18,914 bases of DNA from Candidatus Thorarchaeota archaeon (GCA_004524445.1 SDNP01000043.1:1-18914); one strand, 5' to 3'. Positions 8,783 through 18,826 are shown, counted from the first letter of the stretch. Translations and numbers: made by a program. Notes: generated by a model from the letters alone, not told the origin.

Positions 8783-10501
8783 TCACACCATGAAGTTAAC
8801 GAAGAGCGTTGCTCCATTCTTCATGTCAGCCATATAGGCTCGTTTATACGGCCCAAATAGATCACTAAGCCCTGCATTTAGCGCCCATTCAATCCATGAC
8901 CATGAGGACTCCTGTGTGTTCTTTCCCTTTGCATATCTACCATATGCCCAAGACAGATATGTTTCAATCTTGAATTTCAATTCTAGTTTTTCTTCCTCCA
9001 CATGCTCCTCAGTTTCCTCGATTTCATTCTCAAGATTGTGTAATGAATCTAAGAGATCGTCATGAGTCCTCCAGATGATTCCTGCAAGATTTTGGATTGC
9101 CTCATTCATCTCATCATAGTTCTCTTTGTTTCTGCTCCGTGTGATCTTTCCCATTGCCCGAAACATCTCCCCTCTGTGGAGTACAGGAATATTATCTCTC
9201 TTAAGCTGGTTGGCCATGTCTTCACCCCACGGTGTGTTGAAGAAAACTCGAGGATATTTCACAAACATGGGGAATGGTATTTCTAATTTTCTTGCAATCG
9301 GTATGACTTGGGAATAATATGCAGTTTCTCCGGGCCCCCCTGCATGGGCGATGACAGGAATCGAGGAATCGATTGCGAATTGCCGAGAATCAACTCTGGG
9401 TGATAGAAAGGTAGCATGGTCCGATAGGTCTGGAGACTGAGCATCGACTTCTAATCGGATCTCTTCGCCGCAAAGGGGACATTCTCCCCTGAGTATTGCA
9501 TTGGAGCCATCCAGTTCATAGAATAGTTCTGTTCTTGCTCGATTACATGATTTCGCTTGGCATTCATAGAAGAATGGCACATAAGAGGTATCTCTTCCTC
9601 CCGCTCCTGGTTCAAAGCCGTTATTCCGAATCTTTTTTGTCGCTTCATCATGGATTCGAACAAAATCCTCTCGTATCTCTCTGGATAGAAGGAATTCCAT
9701 ACCAAGTGCCCATAGCTCACGTATCTCATCATCAGAAGCTGGAACTAGAGGTAATCCTAGATTACCTACAATGTTCACAATCCTTGCGATAATTCTCTGT
9801 GCCCATTCTCCTAGGGTATCCGAGTTAAGAAATGCTTGTCTGGTCACGGAGAGGGCATATTCAAGCCTTTCATCAAAGAGCGTTCGTGTATTTCCCTCAA
9901 GTACTTTGAATAAGGGACTATACCCCGCTCTAATACTCTGCTCTATTTCCTCATACCAATGATACTCAGGTAAAGGCACAACACTTACAGGTGAGAATTC
10001 GTATTCCTGCGGGATTGGAATACTCACTATATTTCCACTTGGTCCCATCAGGGGCGTTCTTGTATGGGTCAGTTCACTCTGAACTATGTCATAATCAGCA
10101 ATACAATAGAAGGGAACGAGAGATGATTCTTCAGTCGAATTCAGACGCGCCAATCTTTCTGCTGTGACCGCCTTATTCAGAATATAGCAGGGGCCACCCA
10201 GAACAATGCTTTGATGAGCGGCCTCAACAGCACCCTGATTTAGTTTTTCAATAGTTCTCTTAACTTTCGGACTCAGACATCCTAGCTTGCGGTTGATTCT
10301 TGTCAAGGCTGCCTGCAATCTAACGATTCTATCATCAGTATGCCACTCCTGCTTAGCATACTTTCTTCGCAACTTAACTGCACGGTTCCTCAAGTCATTC
10401 ATCATAATAGGTGGATCATTGTAGAGTTCAGATGCCAACCCCTCGTGTTTGGATTCCCAAATATAGTCTAAGTATGCTTGGGTGATTATCCTCTTGGTCA
10501 C
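8783..10501 (-). CDS. bshC: Bacillithiol biosynthesis cysteine-adding enzyme BshC homologue
   Basis: AVEAAHQSIVLGGPCYILNKAVTA (compare BshC tGqQaglfgGPlYtiyK), VPFYCIADYD, FLSPRVDSR and HAGGPGETAYYSQ (compare GGPgEiaYwaQ). Size 572 aa; directly downstream of bshA. Confidence 0.85.
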   Translation of the reverse strand: MTKRIITQAYLDYIWESKHEGLASELYNDPPIMMNDLRNRAVKLRRKYAKQEWHTDDRIVRLQAALTRINRKLGCLSPKVKRTIEKLNQGAVEAAHQSIVLGGPCYILNKAVTAERLARLNSTEESSLVPFYCIADYDIVQSELTHTRTPLMGPSGNIVSIPIPQEYEFSPVSVVPLPEYHWYEEIEQSIRAGYSPLFKVLEGNTRTLFDERLEYALSVTRQAFLNSDTLGEWAQRIIARIVNIVGNLGLPLVPASDDEIRELWALGMEFLLSREIREDFVRIHDEATKKIRNNGFEPGAGGRDTSYVPFFYECQAKSCNRARTELFYELDGSNAILRGECPLCGEEIRLEVDAQSPDLSDHATFLSPRVDSRQFAIDSSIPVIAHAGGPGETAYYSQVIPIARKLEIPFPMFVKYPRVFFNTPWGEDMANQLKRDNIPVLHRGEMFRAMGKITRSRNKENYDEMNEAIQNLAGIIWRTHDDLLDSLHNLENEIEETEEHVEEEKLELKFKIETYLSWAYGRYAKGKNTQESSWSWIEWALNAGLSDLFGPYKRAYMADMKNGATLFVNFMV

Positions 10502-10512
10502 TCAATTCTCTC

Positions 10513-11685
10513 CTATGTTTGAACCGCTTCTTCGAAGACTTGTTCATATTTCGGCACAATTATGTCCGCTGAAAAATTTTCCTTGACCCTCTTTCTTCCA
10601 GCTCGTCCGAGTTTCTTTAATCTTGCATCATCATCAAGAAGGGTAACAATGGCATGAGCAAATTCGTCTTTTTCATAACCTTCGGTGACCCAACCGTCTT
10701 TTCCAGGTCTGACCAATTCCGGTATTCCGCCAGCCGGAGTAGTGATGACTGGCAATCGTGACGCCATTGCCTCCAAGATTACTAGAGGCATCCCTTCCTG
10801 CAAAGAATTCATCAAGAGCATATCCGAGGAGCACATAATCTCATGCACATTACTTCTGATTCCTAGTAGGTGTACCTTCTGGCAAAGATCCAGTTCCTCT
10901 ATTTTACGTTCGACTTCCACTCTCTTCGGTCCATCTCCTACCAGAACAAGCCGGGTGTCTGGGTTTTCATCCACCACCATCTTCATTATTTCTACTAACT
11001 CAACAACACGCTTAACTGCGCGGAAGTTTGAAACATGAAGTAATATCCTCTGATCGGGATTGATTGCCTCTGCATCCTCCTCTTTTCTCACAGATACACA
11101 ACCACTTTCAACCACAAGCCGTGTGCCCTCTTCCCGTTTGTACTTCTCTATATCTATGAAGTTTGGAATGACATGAATTTCTCTCTCAATACCTAATTCT
11201 GTGTACGCGCTCTCTCGAAGATATTCAGCTACAGTGGTGACGGCATTTGCTTGTTGAACGGTATGTTTTACTACTGGCTGGTATGCCGGGTCTAGACCCA
11301 GAGAATGTACATCTGAACCATGCATAGTTATGACATAAGGTATCCCAACAATTTCTCTTGCCATGTATGCAGACAACGCGTGAGGAATGGCGTAGTGCGA
11401 GTGAATCAAATCCAACTTAGAGTTATGAGTGACTTGAACCATCTTTGACGCAAGTGCCATCGAATAAGGGGGACAGATATCCTTGAATAATGGATAGTCT
11501 ATGGTATCGACAAGATCTACATATGCTCCTCGGGTGTCCTCCCACATCAAAGAGAAAGGTCTTTGATATGTTACAAAGTGGATTATGTGACCTCTCTCAA
11601 CAAGATGTCGTCCCAATCGAGTGGCAAGATATCCTGAACCACCAACTGAAGGATATAGATTGACTCCTATTTTCACCCTTGTCAA
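10513..11685 (-). CDS. bshA: N-acetyl-alpha-D-glucosaminyl L-malate synthase BshA (GT4 glycosyltransferase)
   Basis: KIGVNLYPSVGGSGYLATRLG, YPLF..PPYSMALASKM, HSHYAIPHA, TMHGSDV and HVSNFRAVKRV are BshA-specific blocks. GT4 motif EGMPLVILEAM is present. Confidence 0.93.
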   Translation of the reverse strand: MTRVKIGVNLYPSVGGSGYLATRLGRHLVERGHIIHFVTYQRPFSLMWEDTRGAYVDLVDTIDYPLFKDICPPYSMALASKMVQVTHNSKLDLIHSHYAIPHALSAYMAREIVGIPYVITMHGSDVHSLGLDPAYQPVVKHTVQQANAVTTVAEYLRESAYTELGIEREIHVIPNFIDIEKYKREEGTRLVVESGCVSVRKEEDAEAINPDQRILLHVSNFRAVKRVVELVEIMKMVVDENPDTRLVLVGDGPKRVEVERKIEELDLCQKVHLLGIRSNVHEIMCSSDMLLMNSLQEGMPLVILEAMASRLPVITTPAGGIPELVRPGKDGWVTEGYEKDEFAHAIVTLLDDDARLKKLGRAGRKRVKENFSADIIVPKYEQVFEEAVQT

Positions 11686-11792
11686 CTCTGGTATCGTATC
11701 AAGACTACCTGCCTTTAAGGTGCTTGGTGCGGGAAGACGGACCTTCTAAGCATTAGTAAAACTTGAATAGTGACCAGCTCCGATTAATCAGT

Positions 11793-12455
11793 ATGGCGGA
11801 TTTGGGTTCTATTCTTGTGATTGCTGCGCATCCCGATGACGAGTGCCTGGGCGCTGGAGGTACAGTTAGAAATCATACTAGGGCTGGTGTTCCAGTAGAT
11901 CTCCTTTGCTTAACCGGAAACGACATCCGAAATGAGGAGCTGGCTAGCGCTAGTGATATATTGGGTGTCAGAAATTTATACCCCTCCAACCGCGATGACT
12001 TTGATATCGATAGGAGTCTTTCCGACTCAGTAGTTGAGGTTATCCTTGAGTCCCGTCCCACTGCTATAATCACACACTCTGACGAGGATTACAATCGTAA
12101 CCATAGAATATGTGCAGAGATTGTTAACGACTCCATTGAATGGGCATCGCACAAGACAATGTATGAAGAACCTCATAGAGTGGAACAAGTACTGCAGATG
12201 GAAATCAATACCCTCCATTCGCATCCTCACTTTATAGTTGACATCACAGCATCTTACGATGAGTCTTTACTGGCACTCAAGAAATATGAATCTCAACTAT
12301 CAAAAGCTGATGAGTTCTATTTGGATTTCTATGATGCACGAACACGACTGAGGGGTGTTCAAGGCGCTTGTTCACGCGCAGAGGCATTCACTGTTTCGAC
12401 TCCTCGCCATGCAGGTCCCTTTTACCAAAAGAATAGCCGCGAACTATTGATTTAG
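11793..12455 (+). CDS. bshB: PIG-L/LmbE-family deacetylase, probable BshB (GlcNAc-malate deacetylase)
   Basis: ILVIAAHPDDECLGAGGT, RNEELASASDILGV, VDIT..YESQ and RG..AEAF. Divergent from bshA. The second motif reads DYNRNH instead of DxHPDH. The ORF is open from 11763. Confidence 0.8.
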   Translation: MADLGSILVIAAHPDDECLGAGGTVRNHTRAGVPVDLLCLTGNDIRNEELASASDILGVRNLYPSNRDDFDIDRSLSDSVVEVILESRPTAIITHSDEDYNRNHRICAEIVNDSIEWASHKTMYEEPHRVEQVLQMEINTLHSHPHFIVDITASYDESLLALKKYESQLSKADEFYLDFYDARTRLRGVQGACSRAEAFTVSTPRHAGPFYQKNSRELLI

Positions 12456-12883
12456 GCTTGCTTGTCTCCGCCCTCTACCTTCTTCCTTCTAGCTGCTAAC
12501 AAGGCTTTGAGTTCGCCCATCATCGTCATTCCGCCGCCTCCGCCACTAGGTGGCCCTCCGCCTCCTGCACTGGCTGGTGCCGGACCTGGCGCAGCACCAA
12601 CGCTTGGTGATGTTGGTGGACTGGGTGTGGATGACCCTACTTCTGCTGCAGATTCTGCAGCAACACTACTTGCTCTTGAGCTCAGAGAAGATATTCGGGA
12701 ATCCATGCTACTGACATTCTCTTCTAACGAGCTAATTCGGTTCTCAAGCTGACCTATAGCATCAACAATTTTTCCCGTTATGATGCTGACTACTTCACCA
12801 AGTTGACGTAGCTTTTCTTCCGTTGGGTCCTTTAAGGCCCATTCAAATTCTTCCATGATGAAATCGTCATCGTCTTCAGCCAT
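12452..12883 (-). CDS. Coiled-coil / proline-glycine-rich protein with C-terminal WH2/C/FAB-like helix; putative actin regulator
   Basis: Order of parts: MAEDDDDFIMEEFEW, heptad coil, STPSPPTSP..APGPAP..GGGGPPSGGGGG, MMGELKALLAARRKKV. ATG 12883 has a GGAG RBS and a TTTATA box near 12926-12931. CDS status is well supported; the function is inferred. Confidence 0.7.
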   Translation of the reverse strand: MAEDDDDFIMEEFEWALKDPTEEKLRQLGEVVSIITGKIVDAIGQLENRISSLEENVSSMDSRISSLSSRASSVAAESAAEVGSSTPSPPTSPSVGAAPGPAPASAGGGGPPSGGGGGMTMMGELKALLAARRKKVEGGDKQA

Positions 12884-12966
12884 TGGACTTGGCTCCGTTC
12901 TTTTTACAGTTTGATTTGTTTGCGCTATAAAGCTTGTTTGCACAAGACCAATCTATTCTCCGCTTA

Positions 12967-14346
12967 TTATTTCTGGGAAGCGATTGTCTTCCTCACGACT
13001 TGCTCACACGAGTCCAATATTTCATGAACCCGATCATCAGTGGTTGCTTCGCACGTTATTCGTATGACCGGTTCAGTTCCGGATGGTCTTACAAGAACCC
13101 ACCCATCATCTAGAACCAATCCGATGCCATCTACTGTAATAACATCTTGAATTCCATCTATCTCTTTTGGTAATATCCCCGAGAGCTCCTGCATGACCAC
13201 TTTCTTCTTATCATTTGCGACTTGAAGCTTTGTTTTCAATAGTGGGTATATCGGAATCTCAGAAACCAGCACTCCAAAACTCTTTCCTGTGTGCGCCATC
13301 ATCTCAAGTATCTTGCATGCAGCCAAGAAAGGTTCTGGCGCCATATGAAATGAAGGGAATATGAATACTCCACACGCTTCTCCACCCATGATACCGCCCA
13401 GCTCCTTTAACTTCACAGCAACTTGGATATCGCCAACAGGGGTTCGAACGATATCTCCCCCAGTCTTCTGAACTATTTCATCGAGAACCTTTGAACTATC
13501 AACGGTGGTAACAACTGTGCTTCCTTTCTCTTTCTTCAGAAGTGTCTTTGCCAGTAGGGCGATAGTTCTGTCCCCTCTGACAACCTCTCCCGTTTCCGTG
13601 ACAAACACACCTCTATCTGAATCTCCATCATGAGCTATCCCCAGATCTGCTCCCTGTTTCCTCACCATATGAATAAGGGCCTGAAGTGTTTCTTCTTCGG
13701 GTTCAGACTCTCTTCCAGGAAAATGCCCATCTGGCTGTCCGTTTATTGTTACAACCTTGCACCCTAGCTCCCTCACTAGATAGGGCGTTAACACGCATGC
13801 TGCTCCATTTCCTGGATCAACAATCACCTTGAACTCCTTCCGGTTTATTGCTTCACTATCACAGTGATCTATGATGTCAACGATGTGTTTCTCCACTGCA
13901 TCACCCAATACAGCTTCTTGACCTAATTCGTTCCAAGGTGCTACTTTAAATCCTCCAGATGTGTAGAGTGTTTCGAGTTCTTTCTCCATCTCTGATGTAT
14001 ATCCCATGCTGTCTCTATGCCAGAATTTGATGCCTGTGTACTCTGGGGGATTATGCGAAGCCGTCACCATAACGCCCGCATCAAATCCCATTTTCTTGGT
14101 CAGATATGCTAATGTCGGTGTTGGAACTATGCCCAATCGGGTAACATCAACGCCTGTGGACAGAACCCCTGCTACGAATGCATCGACGACCATTTTCCCA
14201 GTAGTTCGAGTATCCCTTGCAATGAGGATTTTTCCTGTTTGAAGATATGTGCCTAATGCCTTCCCCAATTTCATTGCCATATCTAAGGTGAATTCGGAAC
14301 CATACACTTTCCGTACACCCGTTGTTCCAAACAAATCGTTAGCCAT
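12967..14346 (-). CDS. glmM: Phosphohexomutase (phosphoglucosamine mutase or PMM/PGM)
   Basis: LFGTTGVR, phosphoserine loop TASHNP, metal loop DGDSDR, sugar loop GGEACG and VRPSGTEP. Substrate specificity cannot be resolved by eye. Confidence 0.85.
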   Translation of the reverse strand: MANDLFGTTGVRKVYGSEFTLDMAMKLGKALGTYLQTGKILIARDTRTTGKMVVDAFVAGVLSTGVDVTRLGIVPTPTLAYLTKKMGFDAGVMVTASHNPPEYTGIKFWHRDSMGYTSEMEKELETLYTSGGFKVAPWNELGQEAVLGDAVEKHIVDIIDHCDSEAINRKEFKVIVDPGNGAACVLTPYLVRELGCKVVTINGQPDGHFPGRESEPEEETLQALIHMVRKQGADLGIAHDGDSDRGVFVTETGEVVRGDRTIALLAKTLLKKEKGSTVVTTVDSSKVLDEIVQKTGGDIVRTPVGDIQVAVKLKELGGIMGGEACGVFIFPSFHMAPEPFLAACKILEMMAHTGKSFGVLVSEIPIYPLLKTKLQVANDKKKVVMQELSGILPKEIDGIQDVITVDGIGLVLDDGWVLVRPSGTEPVIRITCEATTDDRVHEILDSCEQVVRKTIASQK

Positions 14347-14468
14347 TCTTTTCACATGTCTTTTATCTCAACTTTGAAACAAAAAGGTAACTGAGCGCAG
14401 GGCGAAGTATCCAGAATACGAATATATGCGATATCTAACTTCTACAGGAAAAAAGCAGAGGTCATTGG

Positions 14469-15387: not shown

Positions 15388-15434
15388 GTTAAGCCCAATC
15401 TTTTCACCCAAAACGAGACTCGGAATTGAATCAG

Positions 15435-15983
15435 ATGAGCAGTACGTACGATTACCTATTTAAAGTGGTCATTCTCGGCGAAGGCGCGGTAGGAAAAACC
15501 GCAATCGTCACACGCTTCTCTCATGGCTTCTTCCGCACCGATTACAAGACCACGATTGGCTCTCAGTTTGCTGTCAAGAACATCGATGTACATGAGGGTA
15601 GCGAGAACCTAACTGTGAAGCTGCAAATATGGGACGTAGCTGGGCAAAGCAGATTTCAGATATTGAGGCCTATGTACTATCGTGGGTCAAGCGGTGGTGT
15701 ACTGGTTTTTGATGTGACTCGACGCCGAACATTTCTTCTTCTGGATGAATGGCTCAATGAGCTGGAAAGAGCGGTTGGGAAGAAGATTCCCTTAGTGCTG
15801 GTTGCAAACAAGACAGACTTGCCCGACCGTGTAGTTGAGCCAAGAGAGGGCAAGGAATTTGCAGACGCACGCGACATGCCTTACGTGGAGTCATCAGCAA
15901 AGACGGGCGAAGGGATCGTTGACATCTTCGAAAATTTAGGAAAAACCCTCGTTAGTACAAGACGCTCAAGCGACCGATTTTAG
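15435..15983 (+). CDS. Rab-like small GTPase (Ras superfamily, eukaryotic signature protein)
   Basis: G1 GEGAVGKT, G2 YKTTIG, G3 WDVAGQ, G4 NKTD and G5 SSAK. RabF-like blocks IGSQF, KLQIW, RFQILR, YYRGS and LVFDVT, with N-terminal YDYLFKVV. No C-terminal Cys. Confidence 0.95.
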   Translation: MSSTYDYLFKVVILGEGAVGKTAIVTRFSHGFFRTDYKTTIGSQFAVKNIDVHEGSENLTVKLQIWDVAGQSRFQILRPMYYRGSSGGVLVFDVTRRRTFLLLDEWLNELERAVGKKIPLVLVANKTDLPDRVVEPREGKEFADARDMPYVESSAKTGEGIVDIFENLGKTLVSTRRSSDRF

Positions 15984-16855: not shown

Positions 16856-18826
16856 GTGAGAGATTTGAAAAAACGCGGATACAAGTATCTAGCTTGCTCT
16901 TTTGCGTTCTTATTCTTAACAGTGGCAATTGCCGGTCTAGTTGTGGCCCAGCCAAAGGGCACCACAATTGTCACCCATAGCTGGGACCAGAACGGTAACA
17001 AAATTGTTGATGAATTTGAGCCAAAATTAGCAGAGCTAAAACAAAACGAACGCGTATCTGTGATTGTGACTGCCTCTCAAAGCTTGGAAGATATGCTACC
17101 AATGCTGGATGCAGATATCAGATACAGATACGACGCAATTGGAGCTCTATCCATAGAACTTCCTCGTCGAAATTTGGACATTCTGAGTACTTCCCAGGAT
17201 GTCTTCAGAATATCAGACGCACATCTCGAAGTGCAAGCAACCCTTGATAGTGGACTGCCGATAGTGCAGGTTCCAGAGGCCTATCAATCCTACAATTATC
17301 GAGGTGAGGGAATCGTCATTGCTGTTTTGGACACGGGAATTGACAACACTCATGTTGACTTGGATGATAATGACGCCTACAACGCCTACAAGGTCATTGC
17401 CTTCAGGGATGTTGTAAACGGTCAAGATGATTTCTCGACCCCGGTTGTAGCATATGATGATAATGGACATGGCACCCACTGTTCTAGCATCGCTGCCGGA
17501 TCCGGTGAAGGCGACTCACGATATCGTGGAGTTGCATATGCGGCACAGCTTGTTGGAGTAAAAGTTCTTGATGCAGACGGTGGTGGAACCCTAGAGGGTG
17601 TTCTTGCTGGCATGCAGTGGATAATTGATTACCGGACCACGTATAGCATTGATATCGCCTCAATGAGCCTATCAACCAACCCCTCCAGTTCATGCGATGG
17701 TACAGATGAGATTTGTTTGATGGCTGACTCCATAATGGAGAACGACATCGCCCTCTTTGTTGCTGCCGGCAATCATGGTCATCCTGAACGTCTGTATGGC
17801 TACAACACCATTGGTTGTCCGTCAGCATCCAGGTATGCTATTACAGTAGGATCTGTTAATGATGACGGAACTCATTCAAGCTTCAGTAATGAGGGCCCAA
17901 CCGGTGATGGTAGAATCAAGCCTGAGATTTGTGCTGCTGGCTCATCGATAACAGCAGCCGAGGCCAATAGTGGAAGCGGTTACGTCACGTATAGTGGGAC
18001 GTCTATGGCAACACCCATGGCTGCCGGAATTGGCGCACTACTTCGACAGGCTGACTCTAGCCTATCTTCCTTTAATGTCAAGGAGGTGCTCAAGAGTACC
18101 GCCATGGATATGGGTGAGACCGGCGAAGACAACACATATGGCTGGGGTATCGCACAAGCAAAAGCTGCCTTAGACTATGTCACTGGTGGCGGAACCGAGC
18201 CTACTGACAATCCTCCTACTGCATCAATCTATGCTCCTACAGAAGGAGAAACAGTGAGTGGTACGTATAGAGTCAAGGTTTCAGCCAGCGACGACAATGG
18301 CGTTTCCACAGTCGAAGTGAACATCGACGGAGGGAACTGGATTGACATAACTAATAATGTTGATTCGGATGGCTACTACTACTATGACTGGGACACCACC
18401 GGTGTAGCAGATGGCGCCCATACAATCAATGCTCGAGTCACTGACTCAGCAGGTCAAACAGCTTCTGATAGTGTTGGAGTTACAGTGAACAATGGTGGAG
18501 GTAGCACTGGTGATACCATGCATGTTGCAGACATCTCCTACTCTGCCGTCTATCGAGGTCCTAACGCATGGTTGACCATTGAAGTCACAATTGTTGACTC
18601 GAATGGGAACTCAGTTAGCGGTGCTGATGTCACTATAAGCTTGGAATACCCTGACGGAAGCATTAGTACCTATACTGCAACCACAGGATCTAGTGGTGTT
18701 GCCATTTTTGATTTTGGCAAGTCTCCGAAGGGTACCTATACTGTTAGCGTGACAGGCGTATCTCATAGCAGTTACACATATGATGAAACTGCTAACGTCG
18801 AAACATCTGAAACCTTTACAATTTGA
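16856..18826 (+). CDS. Secreted subtilisin-like (S8) serine protease with propeptide and two C-terminal Ig-like domains
   Basis: Signal peptide (KKRGYK plus hydrophobic core) and I9-like propeptide. Triad VLDTG / HGTH / GTSMATP with oxyanion AAGN. C-terminal Ig-like repeats (PTASIYAP..VSG..WDTTGVADGAHT; MHVADI..VSGADVT). No C-terminal anchor. Confidence 0.95.
   Translation: MRDLKKRGYKYLACSFAFLFLTVAIAGLVVAQPKGTTIVTHSWDQNGNKIVDEFEPKLAELKQNERVSVIVTASQSLEDMLPMLDADIRYRYDAIGALSIELPRRNLDILSTSQDVFRISDAHLEVQATLDSGLPIVQVPEAYQSYNYRGEGIVIAVLDTGIDNTHVDLDDNDAYNAYKVIAFRDVVNGQDDFSTPVVAYDDNGHGTHCSSIAAGSGEGDSRYRGVAYAAQLVGVKVLDADGGGTLEGVLAGMQWIIDYRTTYSIDIASMSLSTNPSSSCDGTDEICLMADSIMENDIALFVAAGNHGHPERLYGYNTIGCPSASRYAITVGSVNDDGTHSSFSNEGPTGDGRIKPEICAAGSSITAAEANSGSGYVTYSGTSMATPMAAGIGALLRQADSSLSSFNVKEVLKSTAMDMGETGEDNTYGWGIAQAKAALDYVTGGGTEPTDNPPTASIYAPTEGETVSGTYRVKVSASDDNGVSTVEVNIDGGNWIDITNNVDSDGYYYYDWDTTGVADGAHTINARVTDSAGQTASDSVGVTVNNGGGSTGDTMHVADISYSAVYRGPNAWLTIEVTIVDSNGNSVSGADVTISLEYPDGSISTYTATTGSSGVAIFDFGKSPKGTYTVSVTGVSHSSYTYDETANVETSETFTI

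Follow-up and report, generated by a model that had tools for sequence, protein, structure and literature searches.

The 18,914-nucleotide stretch of Thorarchaeota DNA analysed here (the window) encodes on its minus strand a 143-residue protein whose family is undescribed in the literature searched. Its most conserved element is a basic amphipathic helix at the C-terminus (the tail) that resembles the F-actin-binding (FAB) block of human VASP beyond shuffled peptides and the genomic background. Our verdict is that this motif acts as a portable docking helix on what is probably a multivalent scaffold. That it binds actin in an Ena/VASP FAB-like manner is the likeliest single reading of the sequence, and one that we hold tentatively.

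Gene and predicted architecture

The window is contig 55 of a Thorarchaeota genome assembly (2.79 Mb, 90% complete). Reading the sequence directly placed the peptide highlighted in the initial annotation on the minus strand, within the last 37 residues of an ORF spanning 12452-12943, with its Ser-Gly5 stretch beginning at 12547. The interval given for it there, 12476-12545, covers the peptide, except for the final three residues, E-G-G (12467-12475), which fall outside. Translation likely starts at ATG 12883 rather than at the GTG reached by the mechanical ORF, because homologues start at the equivalent Met, the ESM Atlas record begins at the same Met, and the upstream signals point the same way (Table 1). 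Namely, the TATA-like box sits downstream of the GTG, which disfavours the longer ORF, and the ribosome-binding-like GGAG is downstream of it too.

Table 1. Coordinates of the family gene, its predicted parts and the genes around it in the window
Feature	Position	Strand	Basis or remark
BshC-like protein	8783-10501	-	PF10079, E 4.7e-18
GT4 glycosyltransferase	10513-11685	-	Neighbour of the 143-aa gene
PIG-L deacetylase (divergent)	11763-12455	+	Neighbour of the 143-aa gene
143-aa family member gene	12452-12883	-	ATG 12883, stop codon 12452-12454; mechanical ORF reaches GTG 12943
Short variable polar end, G-G-D-K-Q-A type	12455-12469	-	Alignment of relatives
C-terminal helix, residues 119-138	12470-12529	-	Begins M-T-M-M-G-E-L-K; AF2 pLDDT ~80; 14-residue core 12482-12523
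Disordered Ser/Ala/Pro/Gly arm, residues 83-118, Gly run at end	12530-12637	-	AF2 pLDDT 46-53; variable columns
Long helix, residues 22-82, predicted oligomerising coiled coil	12638-12820	-	AF2, core pLDDT 88-98
N-terminal acidic/aromatic helix, residues 3-18	12830-12877	-	AF2, pLDDT ~78; invariant columns
GGAG, ribosome-binding-like, 9 nt ahead of ATG	12893-12896	-	Sequence read; putative function
TATA-like box TTTATAG, 42 nt upstream of ATG	12925-12931	-	Sequence read; putative function
Phosphohexomutase	12967-14355	-	Neighbour of the 143-aa gene
Ras-family GTPase, eukaryote-like Ras/Rab	15426-15983	+	PF00071, E 3.5e-48

An AlphaFold2 model of the 143-residue protein, built with a 25-sequence alignment, resolves two helices, a disordered arm and a tail helix (Table 1). 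The long helix carries R-h-x-x-h-E motifs of the trimer type, and it is the only region matched when the whole protein is searched as a profile against the PDB, mainly by trimeric coils (Lpp, reovirus sigma-1, GCN4 trimer variants, influenza HA2, phage gp26). From this model we infer an oligomer, probably a trimer, in which every chain contributes a single flexible arm with a tail helix. Pro runs in the window protein never exceed two residues, so that a poly-Pro run is absent, and the polar end that follows the tail is acidic in many relatives, with six consecutive Asp in the homologue from Lokiarchaeum ossiferum.

Pfam scans at E<=10 of 39 Thorarchaeota and 16 other members returned coiled-coil families only, all of them below curated cut-offs. 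We set these matches (BLOC1_2, CCDC53, HSBP1, LPP and others) aside as composition noise; they are sub-threshold and scattered over dozens of unrelated families. In the ESM Atlas the protein matched nothing beyond the unnamed clusters to which it belongs and structures consisting of single helices.

A widespread Asgard family with two conserved blocks

A word-indexed search recovered 305 homologues at E<=0.01, about 130 residues long, mostly from Thorarchaeota and every one annotated as hypothetical. The close homologues are Candidatus Thorarchaeota, as are all named tail-carrying loci (locus confirmation used the first row, a Thorarchaeota one). An exhaustive profile search added distant members of 117-170 residues from organisms named Lokiarchaeota, Jordarchaeales, Freyarchaeota and Promethearchaeota, which are ~20-28% identical to the window protein, yet keep its plan and tail core. 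This shared plan comprises ~125-165 residues with an N-terminal helix, a coiled coil, a disordered Ala/Pro arm and a C-terminal helix bearing E-L-K and an Arg pair.

At the level of genomes, a joint profile found matches in 332 of 400 Asgard assemblies and in 79 of the 90 that are of high quality. Strong matches (E<1e-15) come from the Thor family and ~14 other families, and only weak ones from families f4-f13, f26-27 and f32-33, while a profile of the tail alone gave nothing convincing in five sampled genomes (of f4, f6, f8, f10 and f11). Since strong matches in the Thor and ~14 other families stand beside weak or absent ones elsewhere, the family, as judged from profile matches, is widespread, not universal, in Asgard archaea, and appears almost ubiquitous across lineages of Thor and Loki type.

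Conservation is concentrated in two blocks. Among 39 aligned Thor sequences the invariant columns fall in two places: the N-terminal F-E-W-A-L-x-D-P, in which the Thor subfamily never varies at F, W, A, L, D and P, and the tail, with M, E, L, K, L, L, A, A and R as its unvarying residues. Across lineages, 100 distinct tails aligned in register share the core [M/I/L]-[M/Q]-[G/S/D]-E-L-[K/R]-x-[L/F]-[L/F]-[A/S]-x-R-[R/K], with E kept in 99, L in all 100, K in 90 and R in 91. These counts make the hydrophobic and Arg spacing, first remarked on in a single peptide, a feature of the whole family. Two other details of that peptide proved local. The Gly-run lead-in, which had been counted as part of the resemblance, is found in the Thor subfamily only; at the corresponding position other lineages read S-[L/A]-R-[G/S]-[A/S]. 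The final K-K-V, which had been likened to the L-K-K-V of WH2, occurs in the window protein alone among aligned members and is unconserved, so that we ascribe the likeness to chance. The tail motif is present once per genome on a small protein, and in this Thorarchaeota genome it occurs once overall.

Resemblance to the VASP FAB block

Human VASP has its FAB at residues 259-278 and its GAB at 223-239 (PMC10340426), and the FAB sequence given in the initial annotation agrees with the published one. We scanned all six-frame ORFs of the Thorarchaeota genome (3.24 M residues) with FAB by ungapped BLOSUM62 scoring, and the family tail was the top match genome-wide at each of three lengths of the block, scoring 46 against 35 for the runner-up with the 20-mer, 39 against 35 with the 16-mer and 40 against 36 with the 14-mer. 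When FAB peptides were shuffled, with the Gly block fixed or free, the genome-wide maximum equalled or exceeded that of FAB itself in 1-6% of trials, which taken alone is a modest result.

The reverse comparison was sharper. A 14-column profile of the tail, derived from 100 distinct family tails, was set against a background of 3.24 M positions with the family gene masked. FAB scored 21.5 bits, the best background position scored 17.2, and one of 20,000 composition-preserving FAB shuffles attained the FAB value. A profile of non-Thor tails only still gave FAB 20.5 bits, so the match is independent of the sequence that prompted the comparison. The likeness thus survives the shuffled controls that had been proposed for it. 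VASP GAB matched in none of the tests, ranking 619th on the window protein and scoring negatively against the tail profile. Allowing for the number of motifs available for comparison, we estimate that among ~1000 basic helical motifs of similar composition one would match this well in a few per cent of cases, and that a matching motif would also be actin-related in a few per thousand. The FAB resemblance is, in our judgement, real at the level of sequence; a shared binding partner does not follow from it.

In detail, the tail and FAB have in common paired hydrophobics at i, i+1, i+4, i+7 and i+8 followed by Ala and an Arg/Lys cluster, a short helix placed after a flexible Gly/Pro-rich stretch, and the display of several copies by a coiled coil, the oligomeric state of the Asgard protein being a predicted one. 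They differ in that the Lys after E-L, invariant in the family, is Asn in VASP, and in that the Asgard protein has only 143 residues, with its putative actin-binding helix at the extreme C-terminus.

Comparison with Ena/VASP, WH2 and WASP/WASH proteins

Beyond the FAB block, which is present at motif level only, features of Ena/VASP were sparse. Pfam scans of the window protein and 54 relatives gave no match to EVH1 (WH1, PF00568) or to the Ena/VASP tetramerising coil (PF08776). Ena/VASP proteins assemble through a C-terminal right-handed tetramer coil, whereas the Asgard coil is N-terminal to the tail and apparently trimeric. As for the profilin-binding poly-Pro region of Ena/VASP, the window protein has no such run, and in Lokiarchaeial relatives two or three G-P-P-P-P-P-G repeats lie less than ~15 residues before the tail.

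The initial annotation had suggested scoring the peptide against WH2, and the Pfam profile (PF02205) proved blind to the tail, with no match in 55 family members at E<=10; a whole-genome scan at the same threshold returned one unrelated 11.8-bit site, not the family tail. The PDB contains many WH2-actin and VCA-Arp2/3 complexes. No chain in it, WH2 and VCA chains included, matched the tail alone or the tail-only profile at E<=10. By eye, the tail recalls WH2 in being an amphipathic helix followed by basic residues, and the Lokiarchaeial S-L-R-G-A-I-M-x-E-L resembles the start of a WH2 helix, but the family lacks an L-K-K-[TV] element at WH2 spacing. WH2-like linkers have been described in Asgard gelsolins (PMC9433394). 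A MIM1-type (Vps4 MIT-binding) motif was also considered and rejected by inspection, the Leu/Arg spacing misfitting the consensus.

In the VCA regions of WASP/WAVE/WASH proteins, a Pro-rich stretch precedes the C helix, which is likewise basic and amphipathic. An acidic run behind the helix, as in VCA regions, closes some of the Lokiarchaeial members, whereas an acidic-Trp end is lacking and the window protein ends G-G-D-K-Q-A. VCA moreover acts on Arp2/3, and in this 90%-complete Thorarchaeota genome we found one actin-family gene and no ARPC4, which makes an Arp target unlikely in this organism. The proposal that the helix occupies the barbed-end cleft of actin or of an actin-related protein therefore stands in part: the FAB resemblance falls on the most conserved part of the protein, while the WH2 comparison fails and the Arp alternative is improbable, leaving actin binding as a candidate function.

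Could the protein nevertheless be a true homologue, or minimal ancestor, of Ena/VASP or of WASH/WAVE-type nucleation-promoting factors? The order of its modules (oligomerising coil, Pro-containing arm, basic helix) is loosely similar, the FAB match is significant, and CCDC53, BLOC1_2 and HSBP1 were among the Pfam matches on the coil. Those matches, however, lie below cut-offs and extend to dozens of unrelated families, EVH1/WH1, VASP_tetra and WH2 are all unmatched, the coil has the wrong position and apparent stoichiometry (N-terminal and trimer-like against a C-terminal tetramer), the genome has the single actin-family gene and lacks a detected ARPC4, and the tail is missing from the five sampled genomes of other Asgard families. 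Membership of Ena/VASP or WASH is thus largely refuted, and we consider such homology very improbable. With no other Ena/VASP feature present and the tail not found in those five genomes, convergence, or a shared ancient WH2-like theme, is a more likely source of the VASP resemblance than direct descent.

The same tail on Arf/RagA-type GTPases

Profile searching and tail-profile genome scans revealed fused forms of the tail. Two Arf/Gtr1-RagA-type GTPases, P0173 (413 residues) and L048:561-1757:- (398 residues), end in the tail core after a Pro-containing linker, here in the form I-M-x-E-L-K-x-L-F-x-x-R-[KR], and the coil ahead of the tail in P0173 also matches the family profile. Unlike the small protein, these Lokiarchaeial GTPases consist of an extra N-terminal domain and a GTPase domain, and none was found in this Thorarchaeota genome. 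The tail-profile scan of 31 sampled f22 genomes located the small family gene in 29 and, in 11 of the 31, also a weaker tail match ending a frame of 412-434 residues; a GTPase-type frame ending in the tail was seen in one f21 genome as well. A word-indexed search for longer tail-carrying proteins returned none, E-values for a 20-residue motif being harsh in 5.8 billion proteins. Judged by these matches, the tail is portable between unrelated scaffolds, a coiled-coil protein and GTPases. Several of the f22 matches (G176:C25:9952-10374, G233:C89:311-748 and others) were flagged with one in-frame TAG, TGA or TAA, which probably sits ahead of the true start, inside the matched stretch.

On a GTPase of ~400-430 residues of the Arf/Gtr1-RagA type, the ordinary reading of such a C-terminal tail would be a membrane anchor. 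Accordingly, the tail might be a membrane-targeting amphipathic helix. It would lie along the surface of the anionic archaeal membrane and hold both the scaffold and the Arf/RagA GTPases there, much as MinD and FtsA are held by their terminal helices and eukaryotic small GTPases by their polybasic tails. The AF2 model places the helix at the end of the chain, behind a floppy linker, its net charge is +3 to +4, and its HeliQuest-type discriminant is ~1.4. Yet the hydrophobic moment (0.24-0.30) and mean hydrophobicity (0.14-0.22) are low, so the discriminant is carried by charge. Lipid-binding helices conserve pattern rather than residues, whereas here E, L, K, G and the small Ala/Ser positions are near-strictly kept between lineages ~25% identical elsewhere, and an invariant Glu is unexpected on a membrane face. 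The tail would thus share with MinD/FtsA-type helices a terminal, basic, amphipathic and flexibly tethered character, and differ from them in its modest hydrophobic moment and strict residue conservation, Glu included. We regard membrane anchoring as possible, though on balance doubtful.

The Lokiarchaeum ossiferum homologue: abundance, and absence from the listed actin co-IP rows

One genome in our set, G138, behaves as that of L. ossiferum, since the masses of its actin ORF (42.75 kDa, monoisotopic) and of an Arf-like 329-residue ORF (38.10 kDa) both agree with a preprint's Lokiactin co-IP table. Its family member, P0342 (152 residues, 16.13 kDa), is encoded directly downstream of an Elf1-like gene whose 24.01-kDa product corresponds by mass to GNAMCCOK_02218, and by this adjacency we take P0342 to be GNAMCCOK_02219. 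All 16 proteome samples contained the latter protein, whose log2 intensity averaged 18.5, a value close to that of the profilin Pro1 (GNAMCCOK_02671; 19.5) in the same sheet.

The Lokiactin co-IP gave a different picture. Actin, five gelsolins, a profilin and Arf are present among the enriched rows, whereas GNAMCCOK_02219 has no row among those listed, which run from the top to below a log2 ratio of 0.3, and no 16.13-kDa protein appears among rows with a log2 ratio of at least 1.14. Such an absence is moderate evidence against a stable actin complex, weak filament-side binders being easily lost in co-IP, and it would suit either a membrane anchor or a partner other than actin. The Elf1-like GNAMCCOK_02218 (24.01 kDa) was itself modestly enriched (log2 1.36, adjusted p 0.034).

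We also asked whether the co-purifying 38.1-kDa 'Arf' carries the tail, and rejected it, as the minus-strand 329-residue ORF of L018 (38.10 kDa) lacks one. That ORF (G138:C1 about 5472000-5473000) has a C-terminal domain of ~150 residues instead, and no other G138 sequence matches the tail-bearing GTPase P0173 as well (E 2e-30, 32% identity).

Gene neighbourhood and the possibility of another partner

The arrangement of genes around the family member in the window recurs in a second Thorarchaeota genome (L034), and it is not the same in Lokiarchaeial genomes. In none of the Thor or Loki genomes examined did cytoskeletal genes (actin, profilin, gelsolin) lie beside the family gene. In Lokiarchaeial genomes the gene adjoins an Elf1-like zinc-ribbon gene (PF05129, E 1.5e-16; L030:7037-7657:+ in G138) with a long C-terminal extension. 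Directly 3' of the family gene in three such genomes, pairs of ~300- and ~400-residue proteins (L030:8309-12595:+ in G138, and L031 and L032) are followed by a small zinc-ribbon gene, and the sole Pfam signal of these pairs is hexapeptide/left-handed beta-helix repeats.

These surroundings bear on a further explanation, in which the tail docks on another Asgard protein, neither actin nor lipid, and the FAB likeness is coincidental. Such a partner might, for example, be the effector of a GTPase, a regulator or some large complex, with the coil protein acting as a multivalent adaptor in Arf/Rag-type trafficking or signalling. Residue-level invariance is typical of peptide-in-groove recognition, and the portability of the motif across two unrelated scaffolds, its single occurrence per genome on a small protein, and the conserved Lokiarchaeial setting of Elf1-like zinc-ribbon and paired hexapeptide-repeat genes, not cytoskeletal ones, all fit this explanation. 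Set against it, no candidate partner was found, the neighbourhood is unlike between Thor and Loki genomes, and the FAB match would then have arisen by chance at ~1e-2 to 1e-3 by our estimate, which allows for many motifs. We find this about as doubtful as membrane anchoring; what likelihood is left, after these readings and those concerning actin and true homology, belongs to something else.

A candidate actin-binding scaffold

Returning to actin as the partner, the N-terminal coiled coil, probably a trimer, would gather several copies of the protein, each extending a floppy Ala/Pro/Gly arm with a 20-residue basic amphipathic helix at its tip. The helix would bind an actin filament or monomer in the Ena/VASP FAB mode, its hydrophobic pairs resting on a surface or groove of actin and its Arg pair touching acidic actin residues, and several tails per particle would tether or bundle filaments of the Lokiactin type. 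In Lokiarchaeial relatives, the arm with its G-P-P-P-P-P-G repeats might also feed profilin-actin. Poly-Pro beside a WH2-like helix is a signature of eukaryotic actin-assembly factors.

The host genome encodes potential counterparts, namely one gene of the actin family (PF00022, E 5e-132; G000:C24:124041-125144) and one profilin. One Thorarchaeota profilin shows weak binding to a poly-Pro peptide of VASP, and Loki profilins have been reported without poly-Pro binding (PMC8410842). The case for actin is therefore built from the FAB match, the poly-Pro repeats of relatives, the multivalent design, the actin and profilin of the genome, the abundance of the L. ossiferum homologue and a gap among known actin regulators. 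The case against it is built from the co-IP, the failed WH2, GAB and PDB tests, the lack of cytoskeletal synteny, the GTPase tails and the patchy distribution, together with the want of a poly-Pro run in the window protein and the reported behaviour of Loki profilins.

Asgard archaea form dynamic actin-filled protrusions and crawl. As their actin regulators the literature, including reviews and a 2026 motility study, names profilins and gelsolins only (PMC13716822, PMC12050087), so that a bundler or elongator appears to be missing. In the absence of formins, Arp2/3 and Ena/VASP, the question arises by what means filaments are elongated and bundled and become attached to membranes. The family described here is a concrete candidate, being small, abundant in the one cultured species with proteome data, and FAB-like in its most conserved element. 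In a stronger version of this proposal, the family would be a minimal archaeal actin-assembly or bundling factor, combining an oligomerising coil, arms with a FAB/WH2-like helix and, in Lokiarchaeia, profilin-type poly-Pro repeats. This is conceivable, if rather unlikely. Were it true, multivalent Pro-arm-plus-helix actin machinery, coupling to Arf-type GTPases included, would predate eukaryotes and have an Asgard origin. Even if the target is not actin, a docking helix common to a coil scaffold and to Arf/RagA GTPases would amount to a new interaction module, and one belonging to the closest prokaryotic relatives of eukaryotes.

Other genes in the window

The BshC-like, GT4 and divergent PIG-L genes (8783-12455) make up, here in an Asgard genome, a gene set of the bacillithiol type, with the phosphohexomutase two genes away from it, and this layout is repeated in L034. 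Eukaryote-like Ras/Rab small GTPases such as the one at 15426-15983 (+) are typical for Asgard genomes. Further along, 16856-18826 (+) encodes a probably secreted subtilase, whose N-propeptide is Tk-SP-like and which contains several Ig-like domains.
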